In this document: in pieces, positions 43,983 to 61,815 of the stretch | Layout: every line of letters starts with the position of its first letter | How positions within the stretch are numbered: the first letter of the stretch is position 1 | Assembly: GCA_964538855.1 (NCBI GenBank) | Contig: CAZIEY010000002.1 | Coordinates: forward strand, 1,709-65,708 | DNA from: an uncultured Candidatus Saccharibacteria bacterium | GTDB taxonomy: Bacteria > Patescibacteriota > Minisyncoccia > Phycocordibacterales > JAACPR01 | DNA length: 64,000 nt | Reading direction: 5' to 3' | The notes under the pieces: model-generated | What the model was told of the DNA's origin: nothing | Seen by the model: the letters and a program-made list of their open reading frames with translations, nothing else | Database searches by the model: none | Program-made: the position numbers and the translations under genes

Positions 43983-44004
43983 TTTACCACAGTCTTGTCT
44001 GTAA

Positions 44005-44126
44005 ATAAAATAGAAAAACTCTAAATTTTGAAAGTCTGGTTGAGCACAAAAAACAAATCACACTCTTGTTACAGAGCGTGATTGTGCGACCCGAGGACTT
44101 CAAAATTTAGAGTTTTTCTATTTTAT
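44005..44126 (-). repeat. Hairpin-enclosed structured element, family 2 copy 1. A 30 bp perfect outer stem encloses the conserved internal-loop motifs AGTCTGGTTGAGCA / GCGACCCGAGGACT and an inner hairpin that reads as an intrinsic terminator on the minus strand
   Basis: ATAAAATAGAAAAACTCTAAATTTTGAAAGTC...GACTTCAAAATTTAGAGTTTTTCTATTTTAT. Located at the 3' end of ftsZ. Confidence 0.55.
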
Positions 44127-45310
44127 TACTTCCGATGACGTCGTAAAAATGATGGAACTGCACCCCATTCGTCGTTGTCATCTTCGGTGACGAGTGCCTT
44201 AGTTTCTTTTTTTTCAACTGGCTCACTTCGTTTTTCAACATTCAAAGAGTTAAAGATGCGACCTCCGGTAGCAGGAGCCTCTGCGATCGGCTTCACTTCT
44301 TCAACTGGTTTTGGTGTTGTGGTACCAAATAATGAACGTTTTGTGGTGTTTGCGCCATCAGGAAAGCCTGCTGCGACAATAGTAACTTTGATGTCACCTT
44401 TCTTCAATTTATCGTCATTAACGGTTCCGAAAATAACACGTGCATCTTCGTCCATTGATTCGGTGATAATTTTTGCAGCTTCTTGAATTTCGTGCATAGT
44501 CAAATCTTCACCACCTGCAATAGAGAAGAGAATGCCTTGAGCACCATTAATAGAAACGTCGAGGAGTGGGGAATTAATTGCCATTTTCGCAGCTTCTTGA
44601 GCGCGATTCTCTCCGTTTGCAATACCAACACCCATGAGTGCAGAACCAGAATCCTTCAAAATAGTTCGCACATCGGCAAAGTCGATGTTGATTTTTCCAG
44701 GAGTTGTAATCAAGTCAGAAATACCTTCAACGGCTTGGCGCAACACGTCATCACACATTGCAAATGCATTTGATGCTGTTGTTTCTTTTGAAATTTGGTT
44801 TAACAGTCGATCGTTTGGAATTACAATAATCGCATCCACTTCTTTTTTGAGTTCAGCGAGAGCTTGCTCAGCGATTTTCATTCGGTGCTTACCTTCAAAG
44901 AAAAATGGTTTTGTTACTACTGCAACAGTAAGTGCATTCGATTCGCGAGCGATTTGCGCCGCGACAGAAGAAGCGCCTGATCCGGTTCCACCACCAAGTC
45001 CGCATGTGAGGAAGACCATGTCGGCACCTTTGATTGCTTCTTGAACTTCTTCTTTCGTTTCTTCGATTGCGCGTCGGCCGATTTCTGGATTCATTCCAGC
45101 ACCAAGACCTTTGGTCAAGTTTTTACCAATGTGAATTTTTTTCTTTGCAAGAGATCCGTGTAAATCTTGCGCGTCGGTATTGATCGCAATAAAATCTACG
45201 CCTTTGACCTTGCTATTAATCATGTGATTAATAACGTTGAGACCGGAACCTCCTACACCAACAACTTTGATGCGTGCAAATGTCTCGATTTCTGGTTTAA
45301 CTTGTGGCAT
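44126..45310 (-). CDS. ftsZ: Cell division protein FtsZ
   Basis: GGGTGSG tubulin signature, IKVVGVGGSG. Start placed at MPQVKPE. The ORF track extends further upstream from an alternative TTG with poor RBS spacing. Confidence 0.9.
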   Translation of the reverse strand: MPQVKPEIETFARIKVVGVGGSGLNVINHMINSKVKGVDFIAINTDAQDLHGSLAKKKIHIGKNLTKGLGAGMNPEIGRRAIEETKEEVQEAIKGADMVFLTCGLGGGTGSGASSVAAQIARESNALTVAVVTKPFFFEGKHRMKIAEQALAELKKEVDAIIVIPNDRLLNQISKETTASNAFAMCDDVLRQAVEGISDLITTPGKINIDFADVRTILKDSGSALMGVGIANGENRAQEAAKMAINSPLLDVSINGAQGILFSIAGGEDLTMHEIQEAAKIITESMDEDARVIFGTVNDDKLKKGDIKVTIVAAGFPDGANTTKRSLFGTTTPKPVEEVKPIAEAPATGGRIFNSLNVEKRSEPVEKKETKALVTEDDNDEWGAVPSFLRRHRK

Positions 45311-50689: not shown

Positions 50690-50810
50690 AAAATAAACTA
50701 AAACCCTAATTTTAAAAGTCTGGTTGAGCATCAACACAAAACGCACATTCATTGTTGAATGTGCGTGATGCGACCCGAGGACTTTAAAATTAGGGTTTTA
50801 GTTTATTTTG
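50690..50810 (-). repeat. Hairpin-enclosed structured element, family 2 copy 2. A 29 bp perfect outer stem of different sequence encloses the same conserved motifs AGTCTGGTTGAGCA / GCGACCCGAGGACT. The inner hairpin reads as the rpsA terminator on the minus strand
   Basis: AAATAAACTAAAACCCTAATTTTAAAAGTC...GACTTTAAAATTAGGGTTTTAGTTTATTT. The 3' arm overlaps the last codons of rpsA. Confidence 0.55.
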
Positions 50811-51901
50811 GTCGTAAGCGTCATCTTCTGATCCTTTGCATCAAACAAAGTGATTTTGAATTGATATGTCTTACCGAGTTCCATTTTTTCCTTCAATTCG
50901 GCTGGAGTTCCAAATTCAGAGATATGTACCAATCCGGCCACACCTTCTTCGATTGAAACGAGCGCGCCGTGTTTGTTGTGCTTGATAACAACACCTTTGA
51001 GCACGTCGCCTTTTTTGTATTTCTTGCCAGCTTCAGTCCAAGGATTTTCCTTGAGAGCTTTGATAGAAAGAGAAATCTTGTCGTTTTTAACTTCGATAAC
51101 CTGTACTTTGACTTTGTCGCCGACAGAGTAGTGTTGTCGAGGATCTTCCACGAGTGACCAGTCGATTTCAGAGATGTGCACAAGACCTTCGAGGTTCTGT
51201 GCAACTTTCACAAAGATACCGAAATCAACGACTCCTGTAACATCACCATCGAGAATATCACCAACTGTGTATTTCCCAATTGGTTTTGATTCAGCAGATT
51301 TTGAAGTGCTTTCGCCACCAGAATTTTTCTCTGAGAAAATCAATTTGCCGTCCTCTGGAGTAGCCCCGATAACAGACACTGCCAATTCCTTGCCGATTAA
51401 TTTTTTAAGTTCTTCCAAGATTCGGTTCTTATCACCGTCAGTTACGCGAGGGTAGTGATCAGCATTCAATTGTGAAGCTGGCAAAAATCCTTGCAAACCT
51501 TGCCATGACATAATCAAACCACCCTTGTTTGCGTCGGTCACAGTCACACCAACGATTTTCTTTGACTTAATTGCGTCTTCGACTTCGCCCCAGATCAAAG
51601 CCTGTCGAGCTTCCTTGAGAGAAAGTTCGATGTAACCGTCGGCATTTCGAATGTCGACTACTTTTGCTTTGATTGTGTCACCAACGCGAATTTTTCGAAT
51701 CACGTCGCGAGACATAATGTATTCTCGACCGAAAATAATTCCAGTTCCGAATGGTGGCAAGTTTACAAACACAGCTGCTTTACCGAGTCCAATCACAAGA
51801 CCTTCAACCATATCTCCCTCTACTGGGGGATTAGTCAAATTGGTCACTACCTTTTTCATCGCTGCACTTCCTCCTACCATCTCTATCAAATCGTTTGTCA
51901 T
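50798..51901 (-). CDS. rpsA: 30S ribosomal protein S1
   Basis: Four S1-domain repeats (GxV.G.V..i..fGaFV...g..GLvHiSe). Confidence 0.8.
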   Translation of the reverse strand: MTNDLIEMVGGSAAMKKVVTNLTNPPVEGDMVEGLVIGLGKAAVFVNLPPFGTGIIFGREYIMSRDVIRKIRVGDTIKAKVVDIRNADGYIELSLKEARQALIWGEVEDAIKSKKIVGVTVTDANKGGLIMSWQGLQGFLPASQLNADHYPRVTDGDKNRILEELKKLIGKELAVSVIGATPEDGKLIFSEKNSGGESTSKSAESKPIGKYTVGDILDGDVTGVVDFGIFVKVAQNLEGLVHISEIDWSLVEDPRQHYSVGDKVKVQVIEVKNDKISLSIKALKENPWTEAGKKYKKGDVLKGVVIKHNKHGALVSIEEGVAGLVHISEFGTPAELKEKMELGKTYQFKITLFDAKDQKMTLTTKIN

Positions 51902-61672: not shown

Positions 61673-61774
61673 TCTACGTGTTCTCCTTATTTTAAGGCCT
61701 TAAAACCAGCTTTTGACTGTTGTGCAGGAGAGAGGACTTGGTCACGAATCACTAAGCTTTTTTTACACAGTTAA

Positions 61775-61812
61775 TAAAAATCACCCACCAAAAAGGTGAG
61801 TGATTTTTATTA
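61775..61812. terminator. Terminator hairpin (AATCACCCACC-aaaaa-GGTGAGTGATT plus T-run)
   Basis: Imperfect 10 bp stem flanked by an A-run and a T-run. Confidence 0.45.
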
Positions 61813-61815
61813 ATG

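Follow-up and report, generated by a model that had tools for sequence, protein, structure and literature searches.

The two long palindromes that lie at the 3′ ends of ftsZ and rpsA in the window (the whole 64-kb stretch of DNA analysed) are very probably copies of one mobile repeat family that is spread widely among Patescibacteria (CPR bacteria). The explanation that accounts best for the observations overall, and in which we have good confidence, is a non-autonomous palindromic mobile element of the MITE or Rickettsia palindromic element (RPE) kind, of which the subtype present in the window supplies a terminator. A core and inverted-repeat arms would enclose a variable central cassette, and in the window subtype (subfamily W) this cassette would be a stem-loop and U-run on the sense strand of the upstream gene. 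The arms would form a palindrome at the level of DNA, the inner 12–16 bp belonging to the element and the outer part to the host; at rpsA this host part would be a terminator palindrome that was already in place, and at ftsZ a short inverted repeat. After insertion downstream of ftsZ and rpsA, the element would most likely serve as an intrinsic terminator, and at rpsA it would occupy the position that an ordinary terminator holds in relatives.

Both copies consist of an arm, AGTCTGGTTGAGCA, a 39-nt inner part, GCGACCCGAGGACT and a complementary arm (Table 1), which confirms the layout of shared motifs and pairing arms that a sequence-only reading had described. The arms are perfect, A/T-rich and ∼27–29 bp long, and the two core-half 13-mers each occur exactly twice in the window, both times inside the two copies. 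Folding of both strands of both copies gave −57 to −64 kcal/mol, compared with about −20 kcal/mol for shuffled sequences (z = −11.3 to −13.4). The inner part has the same architecture in the two copies, namely a stem of 6 bp, a stretch of 8 nt rich in A (in U on the minus strand) and a hairpin of 10–11 bp. The two loci do belong to one element family, as had been supposed. The window-type element has no open frame on either strand.

The genes near the copies are all bacterial: the minus strand encodes FtsA, FtsZ, a pyridine-nucleotide disulphide oxidoreductase and S1, and the plus strand Pth and a 293-aa ORF. The ftsZ stop codon (44126–44128) overlaps the palindrome end of copy 1, and the S1 C-terminus (...TTKIN*) has its last codons (K I N) and its stop codon (50798–50800) inside the right arm of copy 2, in agreement with the earlier statement that the outer arm overlaps or abuts the stop codon. 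Elsewhere in the window, an imperfect inverted repeat with 34-nt arms, 71% complementary and 70 nt apart, lies at 554–691.

Table 1. Coordinates of the two palindromic elements and their parts in the window
Feature	Position	Strand	Remarks
Copy 1, whole palindromic element	44004–44127	−	Between ftsZ and the thioredoxin-reductase-like gene, both minus-strand sense
Copy 1, left arm	44004–44032		Pairs with 44100–44127; core-proximal CTCTAAATTTTGAA common to other copies, outer part locus-specific
Copy 1, core half AGTCTGGTTGAGCA	44033–44046		Minus strand reads TGCTCAACCAGACT
Copy 1, U-rich tail TGTTTTTTGT	44046–44055	−	3′ of the hairpin on the minus strand; terminator scan
Copy 1, inner hairpin, terminator-like	44056–44083	−	11 pairs, one of them G.U (minus strand)
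Copy 1, core half GCGACCCGAGGACT	44086–44099		Minus strand reads AGTCCTCGGGTCGC
Copy 1, right arm	44100–44127		Final bases overlap the ftsZ stop codon
Copy 2, whole palindromic element	50690–50809	−	Between the convergent 293-aa ORF (+) and the S1 gene (−)
Copy 2, left arm	50690–50716		Pairs with 50784–50809; outer AAAATAAACTAAAACC matches the L112 terminator arm AAAATAAACAAAAAACC
Copy 2, core half AGTCTGGTTGAGCA	50717–50730		Exact motif match
Copy 2, U-rich tail TTTGTGTTGA	50731–50740	−	Terminator scan
Copy 2, inner hairpin, terminator-like	50741–50766	−	11 pairs; near-identical hairpin in L113, L114, L117 and L122
Copy 2, core half GCGACCCGAGGACT	50770–50783		Exact motif match
Copy 2, right arm	50784–50809		Holds S1 codons K I N and the stop codon 50798–50800

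A terminator scan flagged the inner hairpin on the minus strand in both copies (44083→44056 and 50766→50741). The two hairpins differ in sequence, both pair and are each followed by a U-run on the minus strand, as had been noted. The stem-loop and U-run thus have the shape of an intrinsic terminator, on the sense strand and directly downstream of the gene. The window copies are predicted, with rather more confidence than doubt, to terminate transcription of ftsZ and rpsA; the same suggestion had been made from the sequence, and it is in keeping with the scan and with the ordinary terminator that four relatives have at the rpsA position. Directly upstream of the oxidoreductase gene, an extended −10-like box is seen in the window (43983–44003; TGTGGTAAAAT) and in the homologous spacers of three relatives (L113–L115; TGATAGTATAAT), so the oxidoreductase gene could be expressed from a promoter of its own even with a terminator inserted behind ftsZ.

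The two sites were compared with the orthologous sites in relatives. At rpsA, relatives whose S1 proteins are 99, 91, 89 and 79% identical keep the gene neighbourhood and are without the element. A plain bidirectional palindromic terminator follows S1 in four relatives (in L112, AAAATAAACAAAAAACCTCGCA-TGAT-GTGCGAGGTTTTTTGTTTATTTTT), and the outer arm of the window copy (AAAATAAACTAAAACC / GGTTTTAGTTTATTTTT) is homologous to the arms of the L112 terminator, the element replacing its GC stem-loop. As the window lacks the GC stem of the relative (TCGCA...TGCGA), the rpsA copy does not represent a simple insertion into the loop of that terminator. The window S1 ends ..TTKIN* and that of the relatives ..TTKI* (window 50798–50815 compared with L112), which indicates that a small deletion removed the original last S1 codons and stop, and that the terminator or element arm now encodes the C-terminus. 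A protein look-up found no exact match on record to the window S1 protein.

The ftsZ site is more varied. A relative with a 98% identical FtsZ (L113), in whose assembly the rpsA site is empty, has the element with different outer arms and a centre like that of copy 2, and another (L114) has a decayed copy. In L115, ∼108 nt of copy 1 are absent and only AAAAC-GTA-GGTTTT is found, while in L116 the site holds a copy of the other hairpin family of the window (family 1) inside a different, perfect 21-bp palindrome. This presence and absence at both sites means that each window copy reflects a gain or loss within a short span of evolution. In principle, a palindrome once present might have been deleted to leave an empty site; we infer that the window copies probably arrived by transposition or recombination. 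That the outer arms are partly host sequence is much of the reason why the arms of the two copies look unrelated. A further palindrome in the window, near tRNA genes (61771–61813), has 19 A/T-extended bp and a 5-nt loop (TTAATAAAAATCACCCACC / GGTGAGTGATTTTTATTAA), and looks like the native bidirectional terminator type that follows S1 in relatives.

Beside the core, 12–16 bp of the arm belong to the element itself, with a consensus of approximately AACTCAAAATTTTRAA. The earlier statement that the arms differ completely is therefore true of their outer parts and not of the 12–16 nt next to the core, which are homologous (CTCTAAATTTTGAA compared with CCCTAA-TTTTAAA) and common to other W copies. 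Nine window-type copies were aligned to examine covariation in the arms. Standard pairs filled 86.6% of the pair cells, compared with 71.5% in shuffles and 31–45% when the partner was slid, and both sides had changed in 30 pairs, a value reached by none of 500 shuffles. The arm cells comprised 228 Watson-Crick, 4 G.U, 1 A.C and 10 other combinations. Such strand-symmetric Watson-Crick arms fit a DNA palindrome and not an RNA helix drifting through wobble pairs. For the inner hairpin of the same nine copies, the sense strand has 10 G.U compared with 6 A.C, and wobble pairs on this strand fit an RNA hairpin that is used there.

The core, GTCTGGTTGAGC...GCGACCCGAGGAC, is asymmetric (bulged) and invariant in all members. 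On the strand that reads GTCTGG it forms two 4-bp helices, each closing with a G.U pair, with a CGA bulge between them and a GA bulge opposite; on the transcribed sense strand, C.A mismatches stand where the GTCTGG strand has G.U. In several groups of subfamily B, the GTCTGG strand also carries conserved internal loops of tandem G.A or GAA/GAA. That the asymmetry of the core is conserved while the arms and centre vary points to protein recognition of a folded or bipartite site, and the core may well be recognised by the protein or enzyme that moves the element. An invariant centre with differing arms is the reverse of what is found in ordinary MITEs.

The core was compared with several known motifs. 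A K-turn was rejected by eye, as the order of bulge and G.A pairs misfits on either strand. The archaeal bulge-helix-bulge splice motif was rejected because the host is bacterial (FtsA, S1, Pth), the intragenic copies are translated and not excised, and the layout misfits. Inspection for an integron attC site (RYYYAAC ... GTTRRRY) showed that GTTGAGC fits GTTRRRY, but the opposite helix strand reads GC-GAC and complementary R″/R′ are lacking. A promoter within the core was rejected as a −10 element at the right spacing is absent. With Rfam 15 at the gathering threshold only tRNAs were found, so that neither copy matched a family, and at permissive E-values the two window copies and seven loci of other subfamilies gave only generic long-hairpin miRNA models, far below thresholds.

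The extent of the family was assessed by scanning one genome per species (185,579 species) with the pattern TCTGGTTGAGC-N25–55-GCGACCCGAGGA. This exact-core scan returned 107 stretches with 119 copies, or 121 with the two window copies; the 11 bases TCTGGTTGAGC are fixed by the pattern, so that identity of the core across the 119 copies is by construction. The record titles all denote Patescibacteria/CPR (Parcubacteria/Paceibacterota, Nomurabacteria, Campbellbacteria and MAGs labelled Saccharibacteria) or are unclassified (‘uncultured bacterium’, ‘MAG: bacterium’), and a scan of viral contigs for the core gave 0 matches. The element measures ∼91–143 bp, and its arms have 16–40 Watson-Crick pairs in all copies. 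Around the identical core, the arms and inner parts are unrelated between three subfamilies, A, B and W.

Subfamily A is intergenic, with conserved arms (GAATTACGAAAYRCAAAAATTTA) and an unstructured centre of 27–29 nt. Each of four fragmented MAGs (LBYO01, MFAC01, JBBTTR01 and JAGXAA01) has 17–22 exact-core copies of it as well as decayed copies, and contigs frequently end inside the repeat. Exact flanking direct repeats 5 bp or longer, with 7 bp as the mode, were found for 51 of 71 copies, compared with ∼5 of 71 expected when flanks are re-paired at random; an example is TCAATAA, which flanks TCTTGAATTACG...CGTAATTCATAG on both sides. These repeats are read as target-site duplications, and together with the copy number and conserved ends they are strong evidence that subfamily A transposes. 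The outermost 4–5 nt of subfamily A (L001–L107) take two forms, TCTTG...CATAG and CTGTG...CAAGA, so the asymmetric core stands in both orientations relative to the termini (flip/flop), even within one MAG.

Read on the sense strand of ftsZ and S1, the centre of subfamily W has the form ATCAC-hairpin-UUUUGUGUUGAU, giving the hairpin and U-run. Seven further copies were located at other sites by a targeted metagenome scan and homologue look-ups, and most lie sense-downstream of a gene or tRNA. Among copies of subfamilies B and W, 46 of 50 have no flanking direct repeats, which equals the control, and neither window copy has them; classical cut-and-paste insertion is thus shown for subfamily A only. 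A transposase or autonomous element with matching ends was sought via orphan ends in ∼0.8 Mb of loci and none was found, the orphan ends lying mostly at contig ends.

Subfamily B has a centre of ∼26 nt, for example CCGCTCTTTTAAAGAATCCTGTGCGG, and lies mostly inside genes. In total, 34 of the 121 copies are within ORFs of 600 nt or more that continue across the entire element, every one of these ORFs being on the complement of the GTCTGG strand. The element is read in three frames (..VLGSP..AQPD.., ..SSGR.. and ..GPRVA..LNQT..), so the constraint on the core acts on nucleotides and not on the peptide. The hosts of subfamily B comprise at least 13 protein families: DNA polymerase I (PolA), NAD-dependent ligase (LigA), Tgt, PheS, PheT, class I tRNA synthetase, MnmA, RecJ, UvrD, UvrC, the CCA-adding enzyme, SAM methyltransferase and FAD-linked oxidase. 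In LigA the insert adds ∼40 residues between positions 421 and 426 of the Escherichia coli protein, and in Tgt ∼38 residues between positions 184 and 188 of the Thermotoga maritima protein; both segments are absent from PDB homologues. The subfamily B copies outside ORFs are truly intergenic, with no split genes among them, and there is thus no sign of removal at the RNA level.

The PolA linker carries an insertion at the same position in five genomes; the proximal arms are shared, and the outer 14–16 bp are unrelated yet perfectly complementary. With respect to element strand, all 34 intragenic copies have the same orientation, and intergenic subfamily A copies between co-directional genes are biased 35 to 15. 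Stop codons on the opposite strand, and selection acting once the element has inserted, can account for the intragenic bias. At one site in PheT (L037 5052–5160; L052 amino acids 506–540), the element is present in one protein and a different Gly/Pro-rich segment of 25–28 amino acids in the other. A hairpin with complementary arms likewise encodes at least one of these alternative segments, and different hairpin inserts may thus occupy the same protein site; no more copies of the alternative PheT inserts were found in the loci examined. IleRS-like class I tRNA synthetases of Patescibacteria (L048 1397–5014, L077 1–2733) have a His_Phos_1 domain inside the catalytic domain as well as a palindromic element.

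Family 1 is represented in the window by copies at 30770–30971, 32889–33033 (opposite orientation) and 33056–33228, and is also found in L012, L116 and L119. Its core is GCTTTCGGAGGACGA..TCGTCCGAGAAC(C)GAG..TTCCCGAGAGGGAA, and an Rfam search of its region gave tRNAs and noise with no family match. The two families occur in the same short locus in L012 and adjoin in L119, and a family-1 copy occupies the orthologous ftsZ site of L116. The link between the ftsZ/rpsA palindromes and the hairpins at 30775–33228 that had been proposed from the sequence holds for architecture and niche; homology beyond short strings was not found.

One family-1 element bears on the origin of the outer arms. A tRNA-Arg(CCT) gene at 30959–31031, missed in the whole-window Rfam gathering pass, was recovered by ARAGORN and in a regional scan. 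In the element at 30770–30971, the right outer arm (30952–30971) includes nt 1–13 of this tRNA, and the left outer arm (30770–30789) is a perfect 20-nt reverse complement of the right arm and supplies the TAA stop codon of the ORF at 30539–30772. Judging from this arm and from those in the PolA linker, it seems that outer arms can be copied from host DNA. Such arms may stem from insertion into existing palindromes, from inverted duplication at insertion or from later template-switch correction.

The same element could have moved by a different mechanism, and this we consider possible though unlikely. The mobile unit would be approximately the core and short arms, and the cassette would home to the centres of existing inverted repeats, or enlarge its arms by copying one host flank in inverted form, with a putative structure-specific enzyme recognising the bulged core in folded single-stranded DNA. 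Such a mechanism is favoured by the inverted repeat that the empty alleles of both window sites have at the insertion point (the full terminator palindrome at rpsA; AAAAC GTA GGTTTT at ftsZ), by the tRNA-Arg arm of family 1, by the unrelated but perfectly complementary outer arms in PolA, by the lack of direct repeats around subfamilies B and W, by the conserved core asymmetry and one-stranded G.A or GAA/GAA loops, and by the different hairpin inserts at the same PheT and ftsZ sites across genomes. However, subfamily A acts as an ordinary MITE, with conserved arms and direct repeats of ∼7 bp, recurrence at the same site is explicable by selection, since few places tolerate insertion, and template-switch correction of quasi-palindromes could keep the arms perfect without a dedicated enzyme, for which the ∼0.8 Mb of loci provided no candidate. 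The idea that the bulged core is the handle of an undescribed structure-specific mobility system of Patescibacteria, placing cassettes at palindrome tips and/or growing palindromes, is put forward only tentatively. The duplicate of the tRNA-Arg 5′ end at 30770–30789 would be the clearest example of palindrome growth by inverted copying of a host flank. If true, such a system would create or replace terminators and insert segments of 35–40 residues into essential enzymes radiation-wide.

Explanations that do without mobility fare much worse. A conserved cis-acting structured RNA (a read-through switch, an RNase III site, a protein-binding 3′ UTR element or a ribozyme), the spread of which would reflect its function, is very improbable. 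The core is invariant across lineages while the stems vary yet stay paired, the element has an orientation bias inside and between genes, and the inner hairpin favours G.U on the sense strand, all of which would suit an RNA; the arms, however, are Watson-Crick on both strands and almost without wobble, the core helices have their C.A mismatches on the transcribed sense strand and their G.U pairs on the other, Rfam has no match even at permissive thresholds, direct repeats flank subfamily A, the copies within ORFs are translated through in three frames, and close relatives lack the element at the same genes. The RNA switch or sRNA proposed to account for the long helices and loop motifs thus gives way to a dispersed repeat, with direct repeats in one subfamily, site polymorphism and in-frame insertions; a recombination site or DNA cruciform, also among the earlier suggestions, came closest. 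We give hardly any credence to bidirectional terminators evolved by the host, with a motif shared by descent or convergence. The native terminators of the lineage are indeed long, A/T-extended perfect palindromes (L108, L109, L112; window 61771–61813) and both window copies are at gene 3′ ends, but the same 23-nt core recurs at 119 sites, some of them within ORFs, where ending transcription would be lethal, and the orthologous rpsA site is without the element in a relative with a 99% identical S1. The reading that we prefer remains a non-autonomous palindromic mobile element.

The genomes of Patescibacteria are tiny and densely packed with genes, and few mobile elements are thought to occur in them. 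Our search for a link between MITEs and CPR bacteria found no paper, though its coverage was incomplete and an earlier description is possible. The repeat family breaks assemblies, replaces terminators and adds translated segments to PolA, ligase, tRNA synthetases and tRNA-modifying enzymes, and is thus both a practical issue for annotation and a source of protein and regulatory change. Its invariant centre and variable arms, and the host-derived parts of the arms, are leads to the mechanism of insertion.

The Correia elements (CREE) of Neisseria, like BOX, RUP, ERIC and other classical MITEs, have inverted-repeat ends, target duplication and many copies; they are co-transcribed with their neighbours as long hairpins and can supply regulatory signals, and the Correia element duplicates TA. 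The present family agrees with MITEs in being shorter than ∼300 bp without coding capacity of its own and in having terminal inverted repeats, many dispersed copies and polymorphism at orthologous sites. Target-site duplication was found for subfamily A and not for the window-type and intragenic copies. It thus resembles the Correia elements and classical MITEs in its inverted-repeat ends, its copy number and, in subfamily A, its target duplication, whereas classical MITEs conserve their ends and this family conserves its centre, and the duplication in subfamily A is ∼7 bp and not TA. That folded DNA can be recognised and palindromes targeted for insertion has precedents in RAYT-mobilised REPINs, IS1397-type insertion into REP loops and class C group II introns that insert after terminators. 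Like REP sequences and REPINs, the family here consists of hairpin-forming extragenic repeats at gene 3′ ends, but it is without the GTAG/CGTC tag, no RAYT or other enzyme was found for it, and its elements are longer and also occur within genes. With SPRITE it shares a small repeat with a terminator-like stem-loop at gene ends; it differs in that the terminator cassette is nested in a larger palindrome with a conserved bulged core, in that sister subfamilies are without the terminator module, and in that the host group is unrelated.

The closest likeness in behaviour is to the Rickettsia palindromic elements, short palindromic repeats of which many lie in frame in housekeeping genes (Ogata et al. 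2000, as described in a review of MITEs, PMC10969869). Both are palindromic repeats of ∼100–150 bp without a transposase, dispersed in a reduced genome, and subfamily B, though not the window copies, is found in frame within unrelated housekeeping genes and is translated as extra peptide segments. The likeness drawn here is one of behaviour. The family described here belongs to a different phylum, the Patescibacteria, and has one invariant core across subfamilies with unrelated arms, one of its subfamilies has direct repeats of ∼7 bp, and the window copies are intergenic without an open frame. It thus provides a second, independent and much broader case of the phenomenon seen in Rickettsia, selfish DNA inside protein-coding genes.
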